Shown here one piece after another: positions 5,260-21,979 of a stretch of 64,000 nucleotides of DNA. The stretch is from contig CBDFLJ010000001.1 of assembly GCA_965248835.1 (NCBI GenBank), positions 640,001-704,000 on the forward strand, in the 5' to 3' direction. The position numbers were made by a program, and so were the translations under genes. The stretch comes from Alphaproteobacteria bacterium (GTDB lineage: Bacteria > Pseudomonadota > Alphaproteobacteria > MPNO01). The notes under the pieces were generated by a model. The model had not been told where the DNA came from and searched no databases. It was given only the letters and a program-made list of their open reading frames with translations. Numbering within the stretch: the stretch's first letter is position 1; each line of letters opens with the position of its first letter.

Positions 5260-6471
5260 TCATGCGGCGAACCTGAGGTCGAAACGGTTCCAGATCTCGG
5301 TCAGCGCACCGACCAGACGATCCATCGCGTCATCGTCGTGCAGCGGCGTCGGCGTCAGGCGCAGCCTTTCGGTCCCCTTCGGCACGGTCGGATAGTTGAT
5401 CGGCTGGACGTAGATCGCATAGCGCGCCATCAGCTCGTCGGTCACCTGCTTGCAGCGGACCGCATCGCCGACGAACACCGGGACGACGTGCGAGGGCGAG
5501 GGCATCAGCGGCAGGCCGGCCGCGGCGAGCTTGCGCTTGAGCGTCTGGGCGCGCTCCTGATGGCGCTCGCGAATGGCTGTATCGGACTTCAGCGCCCGCA
5601 CACTTTCCAGCGCGCCGGCGGCAATCGCCGGCGGCAGCGCGGTGGTGAAGATGAAGCCGGCCGCGTAGCTGCGGATGAAATCGACCAGTGCGGCGGAGCC
5701 CGCGATATAGCCGCCGACCACCCCGAACGCCTTGGCGAGCGTGCCCTGGATGACGGTGATCCGGTGCATGTGACCGTCACGTTCGGCCACGCCCGCGCCG
5801 CGCGACCCGTACATGCCCACCGCATGGACTTCGTCCAGATAGGTCATCGCGCCGTGGCGCTCGGCGACGTCGCAGATCTCGCCGATCGGCGCGATATCGC
5901 CGTCCATCGAATAGACCGACTCGAAGGCGACGACCTTGGGCGCATCGGGGTCGCATTCGCCGAGGAGCTGGTCGAGATGGGCGATATCGTTGTGGCGGAA
6001 GATCTTCTTCTGCGCCTTGCTGTGGCGGATCCCGGCGATCATGGACGCGTGGTTGTAGGCATCGGACAGCAGCACGCAGCCGGGCATCGACTGGCCGAGC
6101 GTCCCGAGGCTCGCCTCGTTGGCGACATAGCCGGACGTGAACAGCAAAGCGGCCTCGGTACGGTGAAGATCGGCGAGCTCGCGCTCCAGCAGCACGTGGT
6201 AATGGGTGGTGCCGGAAATATTGCGCGTCCCGCCGGCGCCCGCGCCCACGCGGTCGAGCGCCTCGTGCATGGCCGCGACGACCCGCCTGTCCTGGCCCAT
6301 CCCCAGATAGTCGTTGGAGCACCACACGGTCACTTCGGCGGTGCCGCCGCCCTCATGGCTGGTGGCATGCGGGAAATCGCCCGCATGCCGCTCCAGATCC
6401 GCGAAGATCCGGTAGCGCCCTTCGTCCTTCAGGGCCGAGACCGCCTCGGCGAAAAATTTCTCATGGTCCAT
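5260..6471 (-). CDS. hemA: 5-aminolevulinate synthase
   Basis: [50 protein letters not shown] (PLP lysine). Confidence 0.97.
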
Positions 6472-6563
6472 CGGTTCTTGATCCCGTCGGAGCCGTATTT
6501 CCTTTGCGACAGCATACGACGAGCACGCCGGATTTGAAATGCGCTGGATGGGCTTGCGCTGTT

Positions 6564-7952
6564 TCAGCGCAGCCCGCTCGCCTCGACCCAGGCGGTGGTG
6601 TCTTCCAGCGCGCGGGCGAAGCGGGCATACATGTCCTCGATCTCCGGGCCGGTGATCACCAGCGGCGGCGAGAAGGCGATGCGGTCGCCGAGCGCGCGGA
6701 CGATCAGTCCGTGCTCTTCGGCGCGCGCAACCAGGTAGGCGCCGACCTTGGCGGCCGCCGGGAAGGGTGCCCTGGTGGCCTTGTCGGCGACCAGCTCGGC
6801 CACCGCCAGCATGCCGACGCCGTTGACCTCGCCGACCAGCCGGTGGTCGGCGAAACGCGCGACGCCAGCCTGCATGGCCGGCGCGACCGCGCCCACATGG
6901 CCGGCAATGTCGGTCTCGTCATAGATCGCCAGCGTCTCCAGGGCGACCGCCGCCGAGACCGGGTGGCCGGAATAGGTATAGCCGTGGCCGAAAGTCCCGC
7001 GGCGGCCGGTCTCCTCGGCGATGCCGCGATAGACCCGCTCGTTGACCATCACCGCCGCGATCGGCAGATAGCCCGAGGACAGCGCCTTGGCCATGGTCAG
7101 CAGGTCGGGCTGGATGGCGTAGGTCTCCGAGCCCCATCGGTTGCCGGTGCGGAAGAACCCGCAGATCACCTCGTCGGCCACCATCAGGACGTCGTAGCGC
7201 CGCAGAACCTGCTGGATCTTGTCGAAATAGGTCGCCGGCGGGACGATCAGGCCGCCGGCGCCCATCACCGGTTCGGCGAAAAAGGCGGCGACCGTCTCCG
7301 GGCCTTCGGCCAGAATCAACGCCTCCAGCGATTCCGCGCAGCGGCCGGCGAACGCCTCCTCGCTTTCGCCCTGGCGTGCCTGGCGCCAATAGTGCGGGCA
7401 GTCGGTGTGGCGGAAGCCCGCGATCGGCAGGTCGAACCCGCCATGGTTGGGCGGCGTCCCGGTCAGGCTCGCCGCGGCGATCGTCACCCCGTGATAGCCG
7501 AGGTGCCGGCCGATGATCTTCTTTTTGGCCGGCCGGCCGGTGGCGTTGTTGAAATACCAGATCAGCTTGATCGCGGAATCGATCGCCTCGGAGCCCGAGT
7601 TGGCGAAGAAGACCCGCGCCATCGGCACCGGTGCGAGCGCTTTCAGACGCTCGGCAAGCTCGATCTGCGGCTGGTGCGAGCGCCGGTTGAAGCCGTGATA
7701 GAAGGACAGGGTGCGGATCTGGTCGGCCGCAGCCTGGGCCAGCCGCTCCTCGCCGAAGCCGAGCGAGACGCACCAGAGCCCGGCCATGCCCTCGATGTAT
7801 TCCTTGCCGGTCTCGTCCCAGACGCGAATGCCCGCGCCCCGCGTGATGACCAGCGCGCCGTCGCGCTCGTTGGCGATCGCATCGCTGTAGGGGTGGAGGA
7901 CTGCCAGCGGGTCGCGCCGGCCGAGCGTGTTGGGGCGGAGCCGGCTCGCCAT
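6564..7952 (-). CDS. class III (omega) aminotransferase
   Basis: [62 protein letters not shown]. Confidence 0.93.
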
Positions 7953-10641: not shown

Positions 10642-11269
10642 ACCGCGCATCGCCGGCGTCATCCTGGCCGGCGGGCTGTCGCGCCGGATGGGCGGCGGCG
10701 ACAAGACGCTGCGGCGGATCGGCGGCCGGACGATCCTCGAACACGTCATCGAACGCGCCGCACCGCAGGTCGAGGCGCTGGTGCTGAACGCCAACGGCGA
10801 TCCGGAGCGCTTCGCGGCGACCGGGCTTCCGGTTGCCGCCGACGCGCTCGAGGGTCATCCGGGACCCCTGGCCGGCGTGCTGACCGGGCTGGACTGGGCG
10901 ATCGCCAACGTGCCGACGTGTTCCCATCTGGCGAGCTTCGCCTGCGATGCGCCGTTCCTGCCGCGCGATCTGGTCACCCGGCTCCACCGCCGCATGCGAG
11001 CCGCGGGCGCGGAACTGGCCTGCGCCCGATCCGCCGGCCGCGACCACCCGGTCTTCGCCCTGTGGCCGGTAGCGCTGGCCGAGGCGCTGCGCCGCGCGGT
11101 GCTCGACGAGGGGATCAGGAAGGTCGACCGCTGGACCGCGCGCTATGCGCTGGCGACCGAAGACTTCGCCGCCCAGCCGGTCGATCCGTTCTTCAACGTC
11201 AACCGGCCCGAGGACATCGCGGCCGCCGAGACGCAGATTTCGGCCCTCGACGCGCAGAACCGCGTTTGA
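10631..11269 (+). CDS. mobA: molybdenum cofactor guanylyltransferase
   Basis: ILAGGLSRRMGGGDK, GPLAGVLTGL, CDAPFLP, FFNVNRPED. Confidence 0.95.
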   Translation: MPSEPRIAGVILAGGLSRRMGGGDKTLRRIGGRTILEHVIERAAPQVEALVLNANGDPERFAATGLPVAADALEGHPGPLAGVLTGLDWAIANVPTCSHLASFACDAPFLPRDLVTRLHRRMRAAGAELACARSAGRDHPVFALWPVALAEALRRAVLDEGIRKVDRWTARYALATEDFAAQPVDPFFNVNRPEDIAAAETQISALDAQNRV

Positions 11270-11280
11270 GCCGGCCCCGC

Positions 11281-12213
11281 TCAGCCCGCAGCGCGTTGAG
11301 CGACCACCGCACCCGCCAGAATCACCCATCCGAACAGGCGGTTGGAGCGGAACTTGGCGAGGCAGTCCTTGGGAGAGTCGATGTCGACATCGGCGACTTG
11401 CCAGACGAGCTGGGCCGCGCCGATTGCGAGACCGGCGAAGAACGGCCAAGCCATGCCGGCCTGCTGTCCGGCGGCGGCGAACAGGCAGACCGCGGCGATA
11501 TAGAAGGTCATCAGCCACGGCTTGCTGCCCAGCCCGAGCGCCCTGGCCGAAGATTTGACGCCGGCGCCGACGTCATCGCGCCGGTCCTGGTGGGCATAGA
11601 TCGTGTCGTAGCCCAGCGTCCAGAAGATCCCGCCGACATAGAGCAGGACCGGGGCCCAGCCGAAATCGCCGCGCACCGCCGCCCAGCCGAGCAACGCGCC
11701 CCAGTTGAAGGTCAGCCCGAGGACGAATTGCGGCCAGAACGTCACCCGCTTCATCAGCGGATAGGTGAACACCAGAACCAGCGAGGCCAAGCCGACGAGG
11801 ATGGCAAAGCCGTTCAGCGACAGCAGGATCGCCAGACCCAACGCCAGCTGCGCCGCGAGGAAGACCGCCGCCGCGGCCACCGAGACCTCGCCGCTGGGCA
11901 GCGGCCGGTCGCGGGTACGCTCGACCCGGGCATCGAAATCCTTGTCGCAGATGTCGTTATAGGTGCAGCCTGCGCCCCGCATGACCAGCGCGCCGATGCC
12001 GAACAGGGCGAACAGCCAAAGGCTCGCCGGCGACAGCGGATCGGGCGAGGCCAGCGCGATCGACCACCAGCACGGGAACAGCAGCAGCCAGGTGCCGATC
12101 GGTCGGTCGAGCCGCGCCAACCTGGCGTAGGGGCGCAGCGCGCGCGGCACCAGCCGGTCGACCCAGCCGCCGCGCGGGATGTCGCTCGCCGATGTTTCGC
12201 CCAACCCCGACAT
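11281..12213 (-). CDS. ubiA: 4-hydroxybenzoate polyprenyltransferase
   Basis: RLDRPIGTWLLLFP, GCTYNDICDKDFDARVERTRDRPL, YPLMKR, YDTIYAHQD. Confidence 0.95.
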   Translation of the reverse strand: MSGLGETSASDIPRGGWVDRLVPRALRPYARLARLDRPIGTWLLLFPCWWSIALASPDPLSPASLWLFALFGIGALVMRGAGCTYNDICDKDFDARVERTRDRPLPSGEVSVAAAAVFLAAQLALGLAILLSLNGFAILVGLASLVLVFTYPLMKRVTFWPQFVLGLTFNWGALLGWAAVRGDFGWAPVLLYVGGIFWTLGYDTIYAHQDRRDDVGAGVKSSARALGLGSKPWLMTFYIAAVCLFAAAGQQAGMAWPFFAGLAIGAAQLVWQVADVDIDSPKDCLAKFRSNRLFGWVILAGAVVAQRAAG

Positions 12214-12324
12214 CGAAGCCCGACATTGCCCTTTGGCGCCTGCCCGACTATATCCGGCTCGGTCCTCCGAGACGACCATGTCCCGGGGCGGCCCGCGCAG
12301 GCGCCAAGGGAACAGAAACCGCCG

Positions 12325-13089
12325 ATGTCCAAAGTCCGGCTTCACCTGGATGAGACACTGACGCCGGAGGGCATCGTCGATGTCGGCCCCGACCGCGCGC
12401 ACTACCTCGGCGCGGTGCTGCGGATGGGCCGCGGCGACGCGTTGGCGGTCTTCAACGCGGCCGACGGCGAATTCGCTGCGGTGATCGAGGAGATCGGCAA
12501 GCGGCGATGCACGGTTCGGCTGCACGCGCGGCAGCGCATGCCGGCGCCGGAGCCCGATCTGTGGCTGGTGTTTGCGCCGATCAAGCGGGCGCGGATCGAT
12601 TTCCTGGCCGGCAAGGCCGCCGAGCTCGGCGCCTCGGCGCTGTGGCCGGTCACCACCGCGCGGACCAACGTCGCGCGCGTGAGCCGCGAACGGCTGCGTG
12701 CCAACGCCGTGGAGGCGGCCGAGCAGTGCGGCCGCTTGAGCGTGCCGGAGGTCTTCGCGCCGGCCTCGCTGGAGACCGCCTTGGCGGGCTGGCCCGACGG
12801 CCGGCGCCTCTACTGGTGCGACGAGACGGGCGGCGGCCGCGCGGCTGCGCGCGTGTTCGGCCAGGGCGTGCGCGGCCCGGCAGCGGTCCTGGTCGGGCCG
12901 GAGGGCGGCTTCGTCGATCAGGAACGTGCGCGGCTGCGGGCGCACCGTTGCGTCACCGCGATCGATCTCGGCCCCCGCCTCATGCGTGCGGAGACGGCGG
13001 CGTTTGCCGCCTTGGCGTGCTGGCAGGCTATCCTCGGCGACTGGGCGGGCGATACCGGCACCGCCGGTGCCGCGGTCGGCCTGCGCTAG
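12325..13089 (+). CDS. rsmE: 16S rRNA m3U1498 methyltransferase
   Basis: HYLGAVLRM, KAAELG, EAAEQCGR, VGPEGGF, LGPRLMRAETA. Confidence 0.94.
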   Translation: MSKVRLHLDETLTPEGIVDVGPDRAHYLGAVLRMGRGDALAVFNAADGEFAAVIEEIGKRRCTVRLHARQRMPAPEPDLWLVFAPIKRARIDFLAGKAAELGASALWPVTTARTNVARVSRERLRANAVEAAEQCGRLSVPEVFAPASLETALAGWPDGRRLYWCDETGGGRAAARVFGQGVRGPAAVLVGPEGGFVDQERARLRAHRCVTAIDLGPRLMRAETAAFAALACWQAILGDWAGDTGTAGAAVGLR

Positions 13090-13108
13090 CGCGGAGGGAA
13101 TCCAGAGT

Positions 13109-14473
13109 ATGGCCGCGCCGCCATCCGCCGAGGGAGCCCCGATCGAAAACCGCCGCCAGTTGATCGAATACCTCGATTCCGGCTGCAAGCCCGCCGCCGA
13201 CTGGCGCATCGGCACCGAGCATGAGAAGTTCGTCTTTCATGCGCAGACCCTTGCGCCCGCGCCCTACGAGGGGCCTTGGGGGATCGGCGCGTTTCTCGAC
13301 GGTCTGACCCGGTTCGGCTGGCAGCCGGTCACCGAGAACGGCAATACGATCGCGCTGACCAAGGGCGACTGCAACGTCTCGCTCGAGCCGGGCGGCCAAC
13401 TCGAGCTGTCCGGCGCCCCGCTCGAGACCATCCACCAGACATGTGACGAGGTCCACACCCACCTCGCCGAGGTCAAGGAAGTCGCCGGCGAGCTCGGCGT
13501 CGGCCTGTTCGGGATGGGCTTCCATCCCAAATGGAAGCGCGAGGACATGCCGTGGATGCCCAAGGGCCGCTACCGCATCATGCGCGAATACATGCCGGGC
13601 AAGGGGGCGCTCGGGCTCGACATGATGGTCCGGACCTGTACGGTGCAGGTGAACCTCGACTTCGCCTCCGAGGCCGACATGGTCAAGAAGTACCGCGTCG
13701 GCATCGCGCTCCAGCCGGTCGCGACCGCGCTGTTCGCCGACTCGCCGTTCGTCGAGGGAGAGCCGAGCGGATACTACTCCTTCCGCAGCCACGTCTGGGA
13801 AGACACCGATCCCGATCGGTGCGGCATCCTGCCGTTCGTCTTCGAGGACGGCATGGGCTTCGAGCGCTATGTCGACTATGTGCTCGATGTGCCGATGTAT
13901 TTCGTCTACCGCAACGGCGAGTATCTCGACGCCTCGGGCCTGTCGTTCCGCGACTTCCTCGACGGCCGGCTGCCGATCCTGCCGGGTGAGCTCCCGACGA
14001 TGTCCGATTGGACGGACCACATGACGACGCTCTTCCCCGAGGTGCGGCTGAAGCGATTCATCGAGATGCGCGGCGCGGACGGCGGGCCGTGGCGCCGGCT
14101 GTGCGCGCTGCCGGCGCTGTGGGTCGGGCTGCTCTATGACGGCGCGGCGCTCGATGCGGCCTATGAGATGATCAGCGACTGGACGATCGAGGAGCACCAG
14201 ATGCTGCGCAGCCAGACACCGCTGAAGGCGCTGCATACGCCGTTCCGCGGCCGGACCCTGCGCGAGGTCGCCGGCGAGGTGCTTCAGATCGCCCACGCGG
14301 GGCTGCGCGCCCGCGCCAGACTCGACCGGGTCGGCGACAACGAGACCGGCTTCCTCGGCGCGCTCGATGAGATCGTCCGCCGCGGCCATTGTCCGGCCGA
14401 GCTCAAGCTCGAGCGCTACCACAACGCCTGGAACCGCAACATCGACCCGCTGTTCGGCGAGTTCGCCTACTAG
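13109..14473 (+). CDS. gshA: glutamate--cysteine ligase (plant/alphaproteobacterial type)
   Basis: WRIGTEHEKF, SLEPGGQLELSGAP, MPKGRY, TCTVQVNLD, FPEVRLKRFIEMRGAD. Confidence 0.96.
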   Translation: MAAPPSAEGAPIENRRQLIEYLDSGCKPAADWRIGTEHEKFVFHAQTLAPAPYEGPWGIGAFLDGLTRFGWQPVTENGNTIALTKGDCNVSLEPGGQLELSGAPLETIHQTCDEVHTHLAEVKEVAGELGVGLFGMGFHPKWKREDMPWMPKGRYRIMREYMPGKGALGLDMMVRTCTVQVNLDFASEADMVKKYRVGIALQPVATALFADSPFVEGEPSGYYSFRSHVWEDTDPDRCGILPFVFEDGMGFERYVDYVLDVPMYFVYRNGEYLDASGLSFRDFLDGRLPILPGELPTMSDWTDHMTTLFPEVRLKRFIEMRGADGGPWRRLCALPALWVGLLYDGAALDAAYEMISDWTIEEHQMLRSQTPLKALHTPFRGRTLREVAGEVLQIAHAGLRARARLDRVGDNETGFLGALDEIVRRGHCPAELKLERYHNAWNRNIDPLFGEFAY

Positions 14474-14516: not shown

Positions 14517-15950
14517 TCAGGCCGCCGTCCCGCCGACCGTCAAGTTGTCGATCAACAGCGTCGGCTGACCGACGCCCACCGGCACCCCCTGGCCGTCCTT
14601 GCCGCAGGTTCCGACTCCGGGATCGAGCGTCATGTCGTCGCCGATCATCCGAACCCGGGTCAGCACGTCGGGCCCGTTGCCGATCAGGGTCGCGCCCTTG
14701 ACCGGCGCGCCGATCCGGCCGTCCTCGATCAAATAGGCCTCCGAGGCGGTAAACACGAACTTGCCGGACGTGATGTCGACCTGGCCGCCGCCGAAATTGA
14801 CCGCGTACAACCCCTTTGGCACCGCGGCGATGATCTCCTCGCTGCTGCGCTCGCCGGACAGCATGTAGGTGTTGGTCATTCGCGGCATCGGTGCGTGGGC
14901 GAAGCTCTCCCGCCGGCCGTTGCCGGTTGGCGCCAGGCCCATCAGCCGGGCGTTCAGCCGGTCCTGCATGTAACCGGTCAGGATGCCGTCCTCGATCAGC
15001 GTCGTGTGCTGGCTCGGCGTGCCCTCGTCGTCGATGCTGAGCGAGCCGCGCCGGCCGGCGATGGTGCCGTCATCGACGACGGTGACGCCGGGCGAGGCGA
15101 TCCGTTCGCCCATCAGGCCGGCGAAGGCCGAGGTCTTCTTGCGGTTGAAATCGCCTTCCAGCCCGTGGCCGATCGCTTCGTGCAGCAGGACGCCGGGCCA
15201 TCCGGGCCCCAGTACCACCGGCATTTCCCCGGCCGGCGCCGGGACCGATTCGAGGTTCACCAGCGCCTGGCGCAGCGCCTCCTCGACCTGCGCCTTCCAG
15301 GCGTCCTCGGCCATGTAGGGACCATAGGCGGTCCGGCCGCCGGTGCCATGGCTGCCGGTCTCCATCCGACCGCCGTCGGCGACCACGATGGAGACGTTGA
15401 ACCGGACCAGAGGACGGATGTCGGCCGCCCGCCTGCCGTCGGCGCGGATGATCTGGATCGCCTGCCATTCGCCGGCGATCGAGGCGACCACCTGGGCGAC
15501 CCGGGCGTCGCGGCCGCGGGCGTAGGCATCGATGTCCTGCAGCAGCTTGACCTTCGCCTCGAAGGAGATCTCGCCCAGCGGGTTGTCCTCGGCGTAGAGC
15601 GCGGTGTTGGTCGCGGCCGGGCCTTCGGCGGCGATTCCGCCGCGGCCGGCCCGCACCGCCTTGACGGTCTGCGCGGCACGCCCGATCGCGGCCTCGGAGA
15701 TCTCCGCGGCATGGGCGTAGCCGGTGGTCTCGCCCGCGACCGCGCGCAGCCCGAAGCCCTGGCTGGTGTCGAACGAGGCAGTCTTCAGCCTGCCATCGTC
15801 GAAGGCCAAGCCCTCCGATTGGCGGTATTCGATGAACAGCTCGCCGTCATCGGTTCCGGCCAGCGCATCGGCAAGCGTTCGCTCGACCCGGGCGCGGTCG
15901 AGCCCGGTGCGGCTGAAGAACAGCTCGTCCGTCGTTGCCAGATCGGCCAT
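14517..15950 (-). CDS. tldD: metalloprotease TldD
   Basis: GWPGVLLHEAIGHGLEGDFNRK, GNGRRESF, PRMTNTY, CGKDGQGVPVGVGQPT. Confidence 0.96.
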   Translation of the reverse strand: MADLATTDELFFSRTGLDRARVERTLADALAGTDDGELFIEYRQSEGLAFDDGRLKTASFDTSQGFGLRAVAGETTGYAHAAEISEAAIGRAAQTVKAVRAGRGGIAAEGPAATNTALYAEDNPLGEISFEAKVKLLQDIDAYARGRDARVAQVVASIAGEWQAIQIIRADGRRAADIRPLVRFNVSIVVADGGRMETGSHGTGGRTAYGPYMAEDAWKAQVEEALRQALVNLESVPAPAGEMPVVLGPGWPGVLLHEAIGHGLEGDFNRKKTSAFAGLMGERIASPGVTVVDDGTIAGRRGSLSIDDEGTPSQHTTLIEDGILTGYMQDRLNARLMGLAPTGNGRRESFAHAPMPRMTNTYMLSGERSSEEIIAAVPKGLYAVNFGGGQVDITSGKFVFTASEAYLIEDGRIGAPVKGATLIGNGPDVLTRVRMIGDDMTLDPGVGTCGKDGQGVPVGVGQPTLLIDNLTVGGTAA

Positions 15951-16091
15951 ATCGGTTTCCTTCGCAATGGCGCACCCGCCTCTATATGGACCCGGCCGGC
16001 TTCGGTGTCACCCTTTGACCGGCCAGGCGTGCCCCGCCGCATACCTTGTTTTTGACGATCGCGGTGTGTATCAATCGCGCGGCTTCGGCCG

Positions 16092-16274
16092 ATGCGCGGT
16101 AACCTCGGAGCGGCCGAGCGCGGGTCGGACGGCATCGGCGGCAGCCCTCTGGACGACAGCAGGTCGATTCCGATGCCTGTCAGCAACGGCAACTTCGCCT
16201 CCGACAGCACGATGACCGATCCGGTTGATCCGGCGGCCGCGAGCCGCCAAGACGACCGGGGGACAGGGCCATGA
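16092..16274 (+). pseudogene. 60-aa ORF at the usual coxB position, possible deletion remnant
   Basis: Stop overlaps the coxA start (ATGA at 16271-16274); no CuA motif and no TM helices. Confidence 0.3.
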
Positions 16275-17863
16275 GCGACGCAGCGGCGCCGCACTTCGGG
16301 CGCCACGAGGACCATCCCAGGGGCTGGCGGCGGTGGGTCTTCTCGACCAGCCACAAGGACATCGGCACGATGTATCTCGTGTTCGCGGTGTTCGCCGGGC
16401 TGATCGGCGGCGCGATGTCGATCGTCTTCCGCATGGAGCTCGCCGGCCCCGAATCCGAGGTTCTGGGCGGCGACCACCACCTGTTCAGCGTGCTGATCAC
16501 CGCCCACGGGCTGATCATGGTCTTCTTCATGGTAATGCCGGCGATCATCGGCGGGTTCGGCAACTGGATCGTGCCGCTGATGATCGGGGCGCCCGATATG
16601 GCGTTCCCGCGGATGAACATCATCAGCTTCTGGCTCCTGGTGCCGTCCTTCATCCTGCTGCTGGCCTCGCCGTTCTTCGGCGGCCTCGGGGACGGCTGGA
16701 CGACCGACCCGCGGCTCGGCGCCGATACCGGCCCGCCCGGGCCCGCGGTGGAGCTGGCGATCTTCAGCCTGCATCTGGCCGGCGCGTCCTCCATCCTGGT
16801 TGCGGTGAATTTCATCACCACCATCTTCAACATGCGCGCACCGGGCATGCGGCTGCACATGATGCCGCTGTTCGTGTGGTCGATTCTGGTGACCGCCTTT
16901 CTGCTGCTGCTGTCGCTGCCGGTGCTCGCCGGCGGGATCACCATGCTGCTGACCGACCGCAATTTCGGCACGACCTTCCTCGAGGCGGCGGGCGGCGGCG
17001 ATCCGATCCTGTTCCAGGACCTGTTCTGGTTCTTCGGCCACCCCGAGGTCTACATCCTGATCCTGCCCGGCTTCGGCATGATCAGCCAGATCGTGGCGAC
17101 CTTCTCCAGGAAGCCGGTTTTCGGCTATCTCGGCATGGCCTATGCCATGGTGGCGATCGGATTCGTCGGTTTCGTCGTCTGGGCCCACCACATCTACACC
17201 GTAGGCCTGGACGTCGACACCGAGACCTATTTCACCCTGGCGAGCCTGGTCATCGCGCTGCCGACGGGGTTGAAGATCCTCTCCTGGATCGCGACCATGT
17301 GGCGCGGCTCGGTCCGGTTCGACACGCCCATGCTGTGGGCGGTCGGGTTCATCTTCCTGTTCACCGTCGGCGGGGTGATCGGCGTCGTCCTGGCCAACGC
17401 CGGCATGGACCGGCCGCTGCAGGACAGCTATTCCGTCGTCGCCCACTTCCACTACGTCCTGTCGATGGGCGCGGTGTTCGCGATCTTCGGCGGGTTCTAT
17501 TACTGGCTGCCCAAGATGTGCGGGCGGCGCTACTCCGAAGCGCTGGGCAAGCTCCATTTCTGGCTGATGTTCCTCGGCGTGAACCTGACCTTCCTGCCGC
17601 AGCATGTCCTGGGCCTGGCGGGCATGCCGCGGCGAATCCCGGACCATGCCGAGGCCGTCGCCTTGTGGAGCCAGATTTCCGCGCTCGGCTCTTGGATCTC
17701 GGCGCTCGGCGTGCTGGTCTTCCTGTGGATGTGCCTGAAGACCCTCACCGCGGGCGAGCGCGTGACGGAGAACCCGTGGGGCGAGGGGGCGAGGACGCTC
17801 GAATGGTCGCTGAGCTCCCCGCCGCCCTTCCGCGGCTACGACGATCTGCCGCAGACACGATGA
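16271..17863 (+). CDS. ctaD: cytochrome c oxidase subunit I (A1-type), divergent
   Basis: [44 protein letters not shown]; many P-side substitutions (see findings). Confidence 0.95.
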
Positions 17864-17866
17864 GGG

Positions 17867-18805
17867 GTGGGAGGACCCGTCAGAGCCTTGGCCGATAGAC
17901 AGACCGGATTGACAGCCCCCCAAATCGCCCTCGCCGACGGGCCGCCGGTCGGCGACTTCGTTGCGCTGCTCAAGCCGCGGGTGATGTCGCTGGTCGTCTT
18001 CACCGCGGTGACCGGGCTGGTTCTGGCACCCGGCGACATGCACCCGGTGCTGGCGGTGATTGCGGTCCTGTGCATTGCGGTCGGGGCGGGTGCGGCCGGG
18101 GCGGTCAACATGTGGTACGAGCGCGACGTCGACGCGCTGATGACGCGGACTCGGGCGCGGCCGCTGCCGGCCGGGCGCATGAATCCCGGCACCGCGCTGG
18201 GCTTCGGGGTGATGCTTTCGGTCGGCTCGGTCAGCGTCATGGCGCTCGCCGCCAACTGGACCGCCGCCGCGCTGCTGTCGCTGACCATCGCCTTCTATGT
18301 CTTCGTCTACACGATCTGGCTCAAGCGGCGGACACCGCAGAACATCGTTATCGGCGGTGCCGCCGGCGCGGTGCCGCCGATGATCGGCTGGGCGGCGGTC
18401 ACCGGCGACATCGGGCTCGGCGGGATCGCGCTGTTCGCGCTGATCTTCATGTGGACGCCGCCGCATTTCTGGGCGCTGTCGCTCTACAAGTGCGGCGACT
18501 ACCAGGAGGCTGGCATCCCGATGATGCCGGTGGTCGCCGGCACGCGCGAGACCAAGCGCCAGATCCTGCTCTACACGCTGCTCCTGGTGCCGGTCTCGTT
18601 GTCGCCGTCCGTCCTGGGCATCGCCGGGCCGGTCTATGCCGGGATCGCCGCGGCGATGGGGCTGGTCTTCATCGGCCTCGCATGGCAGGTCTGGCGCGCG
18701 GCGGACGAAGCGCGGGCGCCCAGGCTGTTCGGTTTCTCGATCCTCTATCTGTTCGTCCTGTTCGCGACGATGCTGGCCGAACGGCTTCTCGCCGGTGTGT
18801 TCTAA
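17867..18805 (+). CDS. ctaB: protoheme IX farnesyltransferase (heme O synthase)
   Basis: LLKPRVMSLVVFT, NMWYERDVD.LM.RT..RPLPAG, LKRRTPQNIVIGG, WTPPHFWAL. Start uncertain. Confidence 0.95.
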   Translation: MGGPVRALADRQTGLTAPQIALADGPPVGDFVALLKPRVMSLVVFTAVTGLVLAPGDMHPVLAVIAVLCIAVGAGAAGAVNMWYERDVDALMTRTRARPLPAGRMNPGTALGFGVMLSVGSVSVMALAANWTAAALLSLTIAFYVFVYTIWLKRRTPQNIVIGGAAGAVPPMIGWAAVTGDIGLGGIALFALIFMWTPPHFWALSLYKCGDYQEAGIPMMPVVAGTRETKRQILLYTLLLVPVSLSPSVLGIAGPVYAGIAAAMGLVFIGLAWQVWRAADEARAPRLFGFSILYLFVLFATMLAERLLAGVF

Positions 18806-18809
18806 GCCG

Positions 18810-18938
18810 ATGCCGAGGCGCGCTTACAGCCAACGCCATCGGCGGCGGCGCGCCGGGAACCTCGCGCTGCTGGCGGTGCTGCTCGGGCTGGTGGGGCTGT
18901 TCTACGTCATGTCGATCGTGCGCATGGGCGGGGCCTGA
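18810..18938 (+). CDS. small membrane protein typically found after ctaB (CoxF-like), 42 aa
   Basis: MPRRAYSQRHRRRRAGNLALLAVLLGLVGLFYVMSIVRMGGA: Arg-rich stretch, N-x-A-L, TM ending FY..SIVRMG. Below the ORF-track cutoff. Confidence 0.75.
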   Translation: MPRRAYSQRHRRRRAGNLALLAVLLGLVGLFYVMSIVRMGGA

Positions 18939-18939
18939 G

Positions 18940-18993
18940 ATGCCGGCTTCCGGGCGCACGCCCGCACCGCGCGAGGGAAGGGCCGGGCGATGA
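18940..18993 (+). pseudogene. 17-aa mini-ORF, possible scar of a ctaG-coxC-surf1 deletion
   Basis: ATG 1 nt after the small-protein stop; its TGA overlaps the M32 start (ATGA); MPASGRTPAPREGRAGR*. Confidence 0.4.
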
Positions 18994-20492
18994 GACCCGA
19001 CGGTGCCTATGCCGCGCTCCAGGCACGGTTTGCCAGACTCGCAGCGCTGCGCGAAGCCGTCGGCTTGCTCCATTGGGACATGGCGGTGAACATGCCCAGC
19101 GGCGGTGCCGCGGCGCGTACCGACCAGCTCGCCGCACTCAAGCGCGTCTGCCACGAGATCCTGACCGAGGACGGCATGGCCGATCGCCTGGAGGCGGCCG
19201 CCGCCGAGGCCGCCGGGGATGCGTGGCGGTCGGCCAATGTCCGCGAGATGCGCCGTGCATGGATCCATGCCGCCGCCGTCGATGCCGATCTGGTCGAGGC
19301 GCGGTCCCGGGCCGAAGCCGCCTGCGAGATGGCTTGGCGCACCGCACGGGCCGACGACGACTTCGCGGCCGTAAGACCGCATCTGGAGACGGTGCTGGAC
19401 CTGGTCCGCCGCACCGGCGAGGCCAAGGCCACGGTGCTCGGATGCACGACCTTCGAGGCGCTGATGGATGCCTACGAGCCGGGTGCGAGGGCCGCGCGCA
19501 CCGATGCGCTGCTCGACGATCTGGCCGGCTTCCTGCCGGATTTCCTGGCCGAGGTGCTGGAGGCCCAGACCGCCCGCCCGAAGCCGCTTCCCCTGGACGG
19601 GCCGTTCCCGGTCGAAACCCAGCGCGCGCTCGCGTTGAAGCTCATGGAACGGCTCGGGTTCCGTTTCGACAACGGCCGGCTGGATGAAAGCCTGCACCCG
19701 TTCTGCGGCGGTGTGCCGGAGGATATCCGCATCACCACCCGCTACGATCCGGCCGATTTCACCCAGTCGGTCATGGCGGTGCTGCACGAGACCGGCCATG
19801 CGCTCTACGAGATGGGCCTGCCACCGGACTGGCGGCGCCAGCCGGTCGGCCGGGCGCGCGGCATGGCGATGCATGAGAGTCAATCGCTGATGATCGAGAT
19901 GCAAGCGTGCCGGTCGGCGGAGTTCATCGGTTTCCTGGCCCCCCTGGTGCGCGAGGCCTTCGCCGGATCCGGGCCGGCGTGGGAGGAATCGAATCTGCGC
20001 CGCCACTACCATCGGGTGGAACCCGGCCTTATCCGCGTCGACGCCGACGAGGTCACCTACCCGGCCCATGTCATCCTGCGCTACCGGCTTGAGCGGGCGA
20101 TGATCGCGGGCGAGATCGCCGTCGCCGATCTCCCCGAGGCGTGGTCCGAGGCCATGGAGCGGCTGCTCGGCATCCGCCCGCCGAACGACGCCCTCGGGTG
20201 CCTCCAGGACATCCACTGGTATGACGGCGCCTGGGGCTATTTCCCGACCTATACGATGGGTGCAATGGCCGCCGCCCAGCTCTTTGCCGCGGCCAGGGAC
20301 GCCGATCCAGGGATTCGGGATGCGATTGCGGCCGGAGATTTCGCGCCTTTGATGGACTGGCTCGGCGAGAACGTCCACCGCAGAGGCTCGCTGCTGCCCT
20401 CCAGCGATGCGATGCTCGAAGCCGCGACCGGCGCACCGCTGGGCACCGGGGCCTTCAAGCAGCACCTGCACGCCCGCTATCTGGCCCACTGA
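18990..20492 (+). CDS. carboxypeptidase, family M32
   Basis: LHWD, HPFCGG, DIRITTRY, HETGHALYE, HESQS, IRVDADEVTYP, GCLQDIHW. Confidence 0.95.
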   Translation: MRPDGAYAALQARFARLAALREAVGLLHWDMAVNMPSGGAAARTDQLAALKRVCHEILTEDGMADRLEAAAAEAAGDAWRSANVREMRRAWIHAAAVDADLVEARSRAEAACEMAWRTARADDDFAAVRPHLETVLDLVRRTGEAKATVLGCTTFEALMDAYEPGARAARTDALLDDLAGFLPDFLAEVLEAQTARPKPLPLDGPFPVETQRALALKLMERLGFRFDNGRLDESLHPFCGGVPEDIRITTRYDPADFTQSVMAVLHETGHALYEMGLPPDWRRQPVGRARGMAMHESQSLMIEMQACRSAEFIGFLAPLVREAFAGSGPAWEESNLRRHYHRVEPGLIRVDADEVTYPAHVILRYRLERAMIAGEIAVADLPEAWSEAMERLLGIRPPNDALGCLQDIHWYDGAWGYFPTYTMGAMAAAQLFAAARDADPGIRDAIAAGDFAPLMDWLGENVHRRGSLLPSSDAMLEAATGAPLGTGAFKQHLHARYLAH

Positions 20493-20572
20493 CCGCCGGG
20501 CGCCGCGCCGATATCCGTTGCTCCGCGGGCGGATTGAAGCCTATATGCGCGATTGACGCGAAAGGTCCAACG

Positions 20573-21979
20573 GTGCGCTATCTCAGTACAAGGGGCGAGG
20601 CTCCGCCGCTCGATTTCGAGGGTGTTCTGCTCACCGGGCTCGCGCCGGACGGCGGCCTCTACCTGCCGGAGACATGGCCCAGCCTGGAGGCCGGCGAACT
20701 CGCCTCGTTCGCCGCCCTGCCCTATTCCGAGGTCGCGTGCCGGGTGATGGCGCCGTTCGTGGTTCCGGCGATCGAGGAGCAGACCCTGGCGGATATTGTC
20801 GATGCCGCCTATGCCGGGTTCGACCACCAAGCGGTCGCACCGCTGGTCCAGCTCGATCGCAACGACTGGCTGCTGGAGCTGTTTCACGGACCGACGCTGG
20901 CCTTCAAGGACTATGCGCTCCAGGTGCTGGGACGGCTGTTCGACCATGCGCTGCACCGCCGGGGCGAGCGCGTCTCGATCGTCGTGGCGACATCCGGCGA
21001 TACCGGCTCGGCGGCGATCGAGGCGTGCCGCGGGCGCGAAGCGATCGAGATCTTCGTCCTCCATCCCGAGGGAAGGGTCTCCGACGTCCAGCGCCGCCAG
21101 ATGACGACGGTCGATGCGGCCAATGTTCACAACGTCGCCGTCCAGGGCACGTTCGATGACTGCCAGGATCTGGTCAAGGCGCTGTTCGCCGACCGCGCCT
21201 TGCGCAACGAATGCAGGCTCAGCGCCGTCAATTCGATCAACTGGGCGCGGATCATCGCCCAGACCGTCTATTACGTGATCGCGGCCGCGGCGCTCGGCGC
21301 GCCTGCGCGGCCGGTCGCCTTCGCGGTGCCGACGGGGAATTTCGGCAACGTCTACGCCGGCTACGTCGCGCGCCGGATGGGGGTGCCGATCGACCAGCTG
21401 ATCGTTGCCACCAACCGCAACGACATCCTCGCACGGTTCTTCGCGCGCGGCAGCATGACCATCGGCAAGGTGATGCCGACCATCAGCCCGTCGATGGACA
21501 TCCAGGTGTCCAGCAACTTCGAGCGGCTGCTGTTCGACATCCTCGGCCGCGACGGCGCTGCGGTCCGACGGATGATGGAAAGCTTCCGCCAGTCGGGCCG
21601 GCTGAAGATCGACAGCGCCGCCATGCGCGACCTGCGCAAGGTCTTCGCCTCGGACCGGCGCACCGACAGGCAGACCGCGCGCATCATCGAGGCGGAATTC
21701 GACGCCAGCGGCGTCGCGCTCGACCCCCACACCGCCATCGGGGTCGATGTCGGCCGGGCGAAGCGGCGCGATCCGGCGGTCCCCTTGGTGGCTCTGGCGA
21801 CGGCTCACCCGGCCAAGTTCCCCGACGCCGTCGCCGCCGCGACCGGGGAGCGGCCGGTCCTGCCGCCTCGGCTTGCCGGTTTGATGGATCTCCCGGAGCG
21901 GTTCGTCGTCCTGGACAACGATATCGCGGCCCTGAAGGCCCATATCCGCGAGCGCATATCCCTGCGGGGTGCGGCATGA
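20573..21979 (+). CDS. thrC: threonine synthase
   Basis: (M)RYLSTRG, GLAPDGGLYLP, ELFHGPTLAFKD, ATSGDTG, NSINWAR, VPTGNFG, ATAHPAKF. Confidence 0.96.
   Translation: MRYLSTRGEAPPLDFEGVLLTGLAPDGGLYLPETWPSLEAGELASFAALPYSEVACRVMAPFVVPAIEEQTLADIVDAAYAGFDHQAVAPLVQLDRNDWLLELFHGPTLAFKDYALQVLGRLFDHALHRRGERVSIVVATSGDTGSAAIEACRGREAIEIFVLHPEGRVSDVQRRQMTTVDAANVHNVAVQGTFDDCQDLVKALFADRALRNECRLSAVNSINWARIIAQTVYYVIAAAALGAPARPVAFAVPTGNFGNVYAGYVARRMGVPIDQLIVATNRNDILARFFARGSMTIGKVMPTISPSMDIQVSSNFERLLFDILGRDGAAVRRMMESFRQSGRLKIDSAAMRDLRKVFASDRRTDRQTARIIEAEFDASGVALDPHTAIGVDVGRAKRRDPAVPLVALATAHPAKFPDAVAAATGERPVLPPRLAGLMDLPERFVVLDNDIAALKAHIRERISLRGAA

Follow-up and report, generated by a model that had tools for sequence, protein, structure and literature searches.

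An orphan gene for cytochrome c oxidase subunit I beside the only heme O synthase gene of an alphaproteobacterium

In Acetobacter, a gene for subunit I of cytochrome c oxidase is found next to a gene for heme O synthase, while the rest of the oxidase is gone. The original study of this relic is that of Matsutani et al. 2014 (BBA), and its abstract reportedly agrees with what later papers say of it. Passages of those later papers state that A. pasteurianus has "only subunit I" of the oxidase, judged to be probably inactive (PMC3751514), that Acetobacter ctaD adjoins ctaB, with ctaA kept and the oxidase otherwise lost (PMC5158111), and that the product is a deranged COX1-like protein without any metal ligands, clustered with CtaB (PMC10715153, citing Matsutani et al. 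2014). Here we describe coxA*, an orphan gene for an A1-type heme-copper oxidase subunit I that stands directly before ctaB in an alphaproteobacterium of the GTDB lineage MPNO01. It lies in a stretch of 64,000 nt (the window; positions 640,001 to 704,000 of contig CBDFLJ010000001.1, assembly GCA_965248835.1). The genome holding the window is called G000, and coordinates are window positions unless given as C1 or L006.

As far as those passages describe it, the Acetobacter relic resembles the window in several respects. The operon has been cut to subunit I and the adjacent heme O synthase gene, with ctaA kept elsewhere; respiration has moved to another heme-copper oxidase that lacks a heme O synthase gene of its own; and subunit I is altered at conserved sites and judged probably inactive. 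coxA* matches this known type of ctaD-ctaB relic in three of four features, the fourth, ligand loss, being absent. All metal ligands are present in coxA*, as at an early stage, whereas the Acetobacter protein is without them, the two being compared by description only. The replacing enzyme differs as well, being a ubiquinol oxidase in Acetobacter and, here, a cytochrome c oxidase of the aa3 type that has a COX3 doublet. The window case is independent in origin, because the full operon is still found in all other genera of its family that were inspected. Our literature search found no paper on the orphan coxA of this lineage; supplementary files, which lay outside that search, may list further ctaD-ctaB relics. 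With modest confidence, we read coxA* as a vestigial catalytic subunit that has been carried along with an indispensable ctaB after its operon eroded.

Two deletions and an orphan subunit I

The gene order at the locus is ubiA(-), rsmE, gshA, tldD(-), coxA*, ctaB, a 42-aa open reading frame (ORF), a gene for an M32 carboxypeptidase, and thrC. In seven of seven relatives inspected from the same family and order (G009, G005, G007, G006, G025, G022, and G004), the full order is tldD(-) / coxB-coxA-ctaB-sORF-ctaG-coxC-surf1-M32, where sORF is the small ORF, M32 directly follows surf1, and tldD was seen before the operon only where the stretch extended far enough. Since the window's coxA is alone while these relatives hold the full operon, two deletions have taken place, one of coxB and one of ctaG-coxC-surf1. 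CtaG, CoxC, and SURF1 were identified among the G009 ORFs in the interval that is deleted from the window. The part of PMC6431628 that treats such operons assigns the arrangement with ctaB between COX1 and ctaG to the mitochondria-like A1 "subtype b". Among diverse alphaproteobacterial loci, coxB stands immediately upstream of coxA in 77 of 80, the others being one locus without upstream sequence and two isolated coxA genes. tldD is a conserved divergent neighbour of the cox operon, syntenic in G009, G007, G006, G025, G004, G003, G001, and G002. The spacer that now separates tldD from coxA* ends with 25 nt that align to the coxB-coxA junction of G009, and the ribosome-binding region of coxA is kept. 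A further 21-nt match to G009, at 16061-16081, is located 15 nt inside G009 coxB and may be a leftover of the coxB start.

The orphan state proposed in the first-pass annotation is confirmed by the rest of the genome. Profile searches of G000 gave two COX1 matches, one COX2 match, and two adjacent COX3 matches, and all of these except coxA* itself lie together in a separate operon elsewhere on the contig. No canonical CoxB or CoxC that could serve coxA*, and no second canonical coxA, was found in G000 by whole-genome profile searches and tblastn; the paralogous operon was all that they returned. When G009 CoxB, CoxC, CtaG, and Surf1 were used as tblastn queries against G000, the sole match was CoxM of that operon, 26% identical to CoxB. 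The Pfam families CtaG_Cox11 and SURF1 had no matches in any of the three genomes of the genus (G000 and the congeners G001 and G002), while both G009 and G003, a member of a sister genus with both oxidase operons present, do match. Because canonical subunits II and III, the Cox11/CtaG chaperone for CuB, and Surf1 are all missing, coxA* is unlikely, judging from gene content, to work as a cytochrome c oxidase.

The second operon corresponds to the A1 "subtype a-III", with its COX3 doublet and CoxMNOP-like composition; the name a-III for COX3-doublet operons is used in the part of PMC6431628 that deals with nomenclature. CoxM has 291 aa and a complete CuA motif, and CoxN is a subunit I of 595 aa. 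Both score under the cut-off of the corresponding equivalog model (CoxN 645.6 against 670.75 bits on TIGR02891, CoxM 131.8 against 147.7 on that for subunit II). Like coxA*, the operon belongs to the A-family oxidases, and the ligand and channel residues of coxA* are also present in CoxN. However, the operon represents a separate paralogous lineage, with CoxN 39-41% identical to coxA* and with its own subunit II, two-part subunit III, and subunit IV-like ORF.

Retention of the adjacent ctaB had been taken to favour continued function of CoxA*. This argument fails, since ctaB has a different client. Genome-wide, the window ctaB is the only match of G000 to heme O synthase above cut-off, the next hit being the UbiA gene, and together with ctaA (heme A synthase; C1:143862-144803) it is needed by the other oxidase. 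CtaA is found in all three congeners. A second ctaB lies beside coxM in G002 and in G003; in G000, only an 86-bp remnant of this gene is left (L006 3656-3740), about 120 bp in front of coxM. Compared with G002, G000 also has some 950 extra bp upstream of the second operon (L006 2112-3069).

An orphan gene raises the question of an assembly or binning artefact, in which coxB and the other genes were collapsed or misplaced. G000 has a reported contamination of 9.5% (its GC content is 68-70%), and the sequence occurs in runs of metagenomic origin. However, the tldD-coxA, coxA-ctaB, and ctaB-M32 junctions are each spanned without indels by short-read contigs from four runs, which belong to one sample that is possibly the source of the assembly and hence not independent. 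In addition, the separately assembled G001 has the same tldD-coxA junction, and the whole-genome searches returned no canonical coxB, coxC, ctaG, or surf1 that might have been displaced. We regard an artefact as hardly credible.

Conserved sites and selection in coxA*

coxA* had been described as a full-length ORF, and so it is: it has an ATG start, 530 codons, and zero internal stops in the ORF and its translation, and it matches the whole Pfam COX1 model (PF00115; 509.4 bits against a threshold of 34.8; model 1-436 of 436 on residues 30-476). The frame disruption expected of a pseudogene is thus absent from the window copy. On the NCBIfam equivalog TIGR02891 (CtaD_CoxA), it scores 666.3 bits, slightly under the cut-off of 670.75, while CoxA of G009 reaches 739.2. 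The protein is 72-83% identical to canonical CoxA of its family, and in sequence it matches COX1 chains of solved structure very strongly (R. sphaeroides 1M56 A, P. denitrificans 1AR1/3HB3 A, and mitochondrial 7JRO). Residues 68-528 align to 91-556 of R. sphaeroides 1m56_A, with overall offsets that agree with the earlier numbering. Its GC content at third codon positions is 0.93, not below that of relatives, and base composition bears no sign of decay. Over 16897-17150, the most conserved part of coxA around the HPEVY motif, the depth of contigs from the four metagenome runs increases 5- to 50-fold; this evidently reflects recruitment of coxA from other organisms and is not a trait of G000.

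For comparison, we assembled 97 alphaproteobacterial CoxA sequences (19 close relatives, one further relative, and 80 diverse loci, minus three with a stop or X). coxA* retains H79, D109, H257, E259, Y261, H306, H307, K335, H392, H394, R454, and R455, in agreement with what had been claimed for its ligand, channel, and arginine residues, and all 12 columns are invariant across the references except one, which is at 99%. The columns of the six His ligands and the cross-link Tyr (H79, H257, H306, H307, H392, H394, and Y261) are among the invariant ones; the metal presumed for each His follows the earlier assignment. D109 and E259 belong to the D-channel and K335 to the K-channel, and the Glu of the HPEVY motif marks the A1 type. 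In these respects, coxA* is like a canonical A1 CtaD/CoxA, with a 12-helix COX1 domain and intact ligands and D and K channels. It differs from one in lacking cognate subunits II and III, CtaG, and Surf1, in falling below the TIGR02891 cut-off, and in the altered near-invariant columns and raised omega (dN/dS) described below.

A column was considered conserved at a conservation of at least 95% among the 97 CoxA, which gave 285 columns for G000 and 240 for G001. coxA* departs at 28 of its 285, whereas the references, counted leave-one-out, show at most 8 departures (median 1, mean 2.2). The excess is far beyond chance. Changes in highly conserved columns include N27S, N117I (the loss of a conserved Asn in the neighbourhood of the D-channel), Y146D, P148R, S150G, F237L, and H250D, and further T370I, T386S, Y388S, Y459H, P460A, and D461E. 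Convergence on CoxN, by which coxA* might have adapted to CoxM, was considered and rejected, as only 3 of the 28 altered sites match the residue of CoxN, the subunit I with which CoxM naturally pairs.

The location of the changes was assessed with 12 helices called from alignment-averaged hydropathy and oriented by the N-in topology of subunit I. On this hydropathy topology, 12 of 45 conserved columns are altered in the periplasmic loops of G000 against 16 of 240 elsewhere (Fisher p=3e-4), and 21 of 132 on the P side against 7 of 153 on the N side (p=0.002). The same bias is found in G001 (19/33 in periplasmic loops, 38/207 elsewhere; p=6e-6). Within periplasmic loops, change is now about as frequent in conserved columns as in variable ones. 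The first-pass annotation had listed changed motifs, mostly on the periplasmic side; these are real and lie in highly conserved columns, except for TRAYF>TETYF, the columns of which are less than 95% conserved. Its argument from LHD>LQD, as removal of the His ligand of the Mg/Mn site that bridges to subunit II, is weak, given that Gln occupies that column in 17 of the 97 ordinary CoxA. With the periplasmic side as a hydropathy proxy for contacts, the pattern lends support to the earlier impression that the side facing subunit II has been released. Among the remaining fully invariant columns, 8.7% are altered in G000 and 20% in G001.

Selection was estimated with a self-written codon branch model (GY94, F3x4) on an 11-taxon tree; its one-ratio likelihood of -9167.33 equals the IQ-TREE GY+F3X4 value. 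For coxA, omega rises from 0.037 in the background to 0.183 in the genus clade (likelihood ratio test, 102.7; p=4e-24). By branch, omega is 0.147 in G000, 0.243 in G001, and 0.124 on the stem, or 4 to 7 times the background, and equality of G000 with the background is rejected (p=0.003). The flanking genes show no significant shift (tldD, 0.050 against 0.069 in the genus, p=0.12; ctaB, 0.082 against 0.097, p=0.48). Pairwise NG86 dN/dS between G000 and G001 is 0.505 for coxA, 0.142 for tldD, and 0.274 for ctaB. The relaxation is specific to coxA, large (about five-fold), and incomplete, with omega well away from the value of about 1 that marks a pseudogene in both G000 and G001. By partition, tip omega is 0.39 in periplasmic loops, 0.26 in P-half helices, 0.14 in N-half helices, and 0.18 in cytoplasmic loops, against backgrounds of 0.025-0.044; relaxation is 4- to 10-fold, with periplasmic loops at 10-fold and helices at about five-fold. 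Two readings had been offered at the outset, relaxed selection after loss of CoxB and repurposing of the protein. The two deletions and the roughly five-fold rise in omega bear out the former, and the latter did not gain comparable ground.

Repurposing would make CoxA* a stand-alone heme-copper protein working without subunit II, for example in O2 or NO scavenging, in sensing, or with a new electron donor. In its favour, neither G000 nor the covered part of G001 has lost any of the six His, the cross-link Tyr, or the D- and K-channel residues, the periplasmic face has been remodelled, and omega stays below 1. Nevertheless, the genus lacks the CtaG/Cox11 and Surf1 needed to build the CuB-heme a3 site, and R. 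sphaeroides subunit I made without subunit II reportedly has no normal a3-CuB centre. Every partition is relaxed, with no newly constrained surface seen; G001 has a truncated copy of the gene, and G002 has none. Nor was the orphan state found in any other genus among 53 genomes of the order. We consider repurposing improbable.

An ordinary split operon is less probable still. Some bacteria, such as Paracoccus, have two subunit I isoforms with one common subunit II, and CoxA* could in principle be an isoform of CoxN that assembles with CoxM and CoxO/P. CoxM has its complete CuA motif, and its operon is on the same contig. However, the distance of CoxA* from CoxN (39-41% identity) and of canonical CoxB from CoxM (about 26%) is large, the altered sites match CoxN at only the 3 of 28 positions given above, and no part of CoxA* evolves faster than the docking loops. 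Moreover, coxA* is gone from G002, where the second operon persists. On these grounds, we find a hybrid enzyme very unlikely.

Loss of coxA within the genus and the role of ctaB

Outside the window, the tldD-coxA*-ctaB-M32 architecture was found in one congener, G001, where coxA has a stop codon. There, coxA follows tldD after 312-313 bp, and the spacer is collinear with that of the window (five blocks, 85-90% identity), so the coxB deletion is common to G000 and G001. The proteins of G001 and the window are 91.5% identical for TldD, 85% for CtaB, and 72-74% for CoxA. In G001, 57 of 240 conserved CoxA columns are altered, the branch in the CoxA protein tree is 0.43 long against 0.06 for the window, and one in-frame TAG falls in the helix-12 region. 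In G002, the equivalent of window positions 16041-18985 is replaced by 196 bp; tldD abuts M32, and there is neither a coxA nor a linked ctaB. Simple decay had been put forward as the alternative to a functional protein, with uniformly spread changes, dN/dS near 1, and no orthologous architecture elsewhere. In this respect the evidence is mixed: omega is 0.15-0.24 and not 1, and the changes are non-uniform, but the architecture shared by G001 carries a stop codon and G002 has deleted the gene.

The two copies of ctaB have been lost reciprocally within the genus. coxA is kept in G000 and G001 and is lost in G002, which has its ctaB beside the a-III operon; its persistence is confined to genomes that cannot do without the ctaB that follows it. 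In the wider order, we surveyed 53 genomes, each at least 90% complete. Canonical CoxB is present in 46 of them, and no orphan coxA was found outside this genus among those without it. G044 has the a-III type only, in G043 the copy is split by contig ends, and G047, G050, and G051 gave no match.

We propose that the ancestor of the genus came to depend on the second aa3-type oxidase (a-III, with the COX3 doublet). The A1 "subtype b" operon would then have suffered the two deletions, of coxB and of ctaG-coxC-surf1, and the coxA-ctaB-sORF block would have stayed once the ctaB beside the second operon was lost. On this proposal the block survives because the window ctaB is the sole heme O synthase gene, which with ctaA supplies the remaining oxidase. 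coxA*, 4 nt upstream of ctaB in what would be one transcription unit, would simply have been carried along. Co-expression with ctaB, in both transcription and translation, probably continues, given the 4-nt gap and the lack of any terminator-like site found between the two genes. A scan of 15800-19100 gave zero promoter-like sites and a single terminator-like site, which falls inside coxA, the expectation from shuffled sequence being 2.0; at a GC content of 68-70%, such a scan tells nothing. The residual constraint could then have two sources: a 12-helix heme-binding protein that is still made must insert and fold without doing harm, and the expression of ctaB must stay intact. The constraint also fits a protein that still serves CtaB, and the two options are inseparable here.

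Several observations weigh against a mere remnant. First, coxA* is not a free pseudogene: omega=1 is rejected for G000 (p=0.013), G001 (p=5e-10), and the stem (p=7e-8), and in every topological partition. Second, the key residues are kept at 12 of 12 positions in G000 and at 10 of 10 covered positions in G001, with a joint chance of zero loss of about 0.034, which weakly suggests continued selection for cofactor binding. Third, the TAG of G001 lies about 150 nt before ctaB, so strict translational coupling cannot be required in that genome. The sample is also small. The genus is represented by three species genomes, one of which, G001, is a 64%-complete draft (G002 is complete, in one contig), and the periplasmic classes are a hydropathy proxy for subunit I/II contacts.

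In another possibility, CoxA* is a non-catalytic partner of heme O and heme A synthesis, either as a scaffold or stabiliser for CtaB/CtaA or as an acceptor of heme a for the other oxidase. Such a role has been suggested in print for the Acetobacter relic, and the window, with its ligands present, would be an early stage of it. Purifying selection has acted in two lineages after their common coxB deletion (omega 0.15-0.24) and is strongest in helices, all heme ligands are kept despite the low joint chance just given, and the block that was retained is exactly coxA-ctaB-sORF. On the other side, G002 does without coxA*, and its ctaB has no adjacent coxA; G001 has the stop codon and 24% of its conserved columns altered; and on the same branches the omega of coxA* is about twice that of ctaB. 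Prediction of a CoxA*-CtaB complex from two alignments of 8 rows each scored 0.00 against a mark of 0.32 and counts in neither direction. We consider a partner role unlikely, though it is the strongest of the alternatives, and we hold as equally tentative the broader idea that COX1 is being turned into a non-catalytic heme-binding protein for heme O/A synthesis, at an early stage here and a late one in Acetobacter. If this were true, two independent exaptations of the same kind would have taken place, and a moonlighting interaction of COX1 with heme O synthase would be conserved.

If coxA* is instead the vestige that we favour, its value lies less in the enzyme, which probably offers nothing new, than in the natural series of respiratory operon dismantling to which it belongs. 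One genus presents three states: in G000 the remnant has an open frame, in G001 it is interrupted by a stop codon, and in G002 it has been deleted cleanly. The reciprocal loss of ctaB explains which genome could afford to delete coxA. The series also shows the effect that loss of subunit II has on subunit I, where constraint drops and the cofactor ligands are preserved. With the Acetobacter relic as a second case, the question arises whether COX1 is kept next to ctaB for the sake of expression or because the proteins need each other. For annotation, a coxA of this kind is no evidence that the organism has a mitochondria-like aa3 oxidase.

Neighbouring genes and other stand-alone subunit I genes

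Features of the locus and of the second operon are given in Table 1.

Table 1. Positions of coxA*, its surroundings, and the second oxidase operon in G000
Feature	Position	Strand	Remarks
tldD metalloprotease	14517..15950	-	Three Pfam PmbA/TldD domains; NF008006 573.8 bits; left edge of ancestral cluster
Spacer, 320 bp	15951..16270		Scar of coxB deletion; relatives have coxB of roughly 980 bp here
coxA*, A1-type heme-copper oxidase subunit I, 530 aa	16271..17863	+	Open frame; ligands kept; 28/285 conserved columns altered
ctaB, heme O synthase	17867..18805	+	TIGR01473 335 bits against cut-off 210.3; begins 4 nt after coxA stop
Small membrane ORF, 42 aa	18810..18938	+	Aligned to same-position ORFs in G009, G007, G005, G006, G001
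Scar of second deletion, 51 bp	18939..18989		Relatives have ctaG, coxC, small ORF, surf1 (about 2.5 kb) before M32
M32 carboxypeptidase	18990..20492	+	Pfam Peptidase_M32 521.6 bits; right neighbour of ancestral cluster
Second A-family oxidase operon (CoxM, CoxN, two COX3, subunit IV-like ORF)	C1:1633969-1638300 (L006 3859-8269)		Same contig as window

The 42-aa ORF has an Arg-rich N-terminus, one hydrophobic helix, and the common motif ...VLLGLV.LFYVMSIVRMGG, and it gave zero Pfam family matches above cut-off. It stayed with ctaB when ctaG-coxC-surf1 was deleted, and it may be functionally tied to ctaB rather than to the oxidase.

Two of the upstream genes are much shorter than their open frames. 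In the 723-aa frame at 10918-13089 (+), the rsmE-like methyltransferase domains are confined to residues 492-703, and in the overlapping 644-aa frame at 11281-13215 (-), UbiA is confined to residues 378-628. Downstream, a 488-aa frame at 20477-21943 (-) was considered as a new conserved family and rejected. It is conserved by tblastn, yet it has no Pfam, NCBIfam, or Atlas match, and it proved to be an antisense shadow of threonine synthase at 20534-21979 (+), which carries the Thr_synth_N, PALP, and THR4_C domains and is thrC. The synteny marked by this region is real, with thrC as the marker gene. Antisense ORFs that are both long and conserved are frequent in this genome, with its GC content of about 70%.

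Altered or isolated subunit I genes were also seen elsewhere. G033, from another family of the same order and 78% complete, has CoxA-like sequences at C1:298085-299311 and 1732606-1733463, with four and three in-frame TGA codons, respectively; these could reflect decay, assembly error, or recoding of TGA. Two reference loci, L078 (a metagenome-assembled genome (MAG) of Nitrobacter sp., 6001-7593) and L096 (an unclassified MAG, 6001-7560), have a coxA without coxB, ctaB, or ctaG within 6 kb on either side, and may be further stand-alone subunit I paralogs. The CoxA of L096 has the most altered conserved columns of the 97 references, namely eight.

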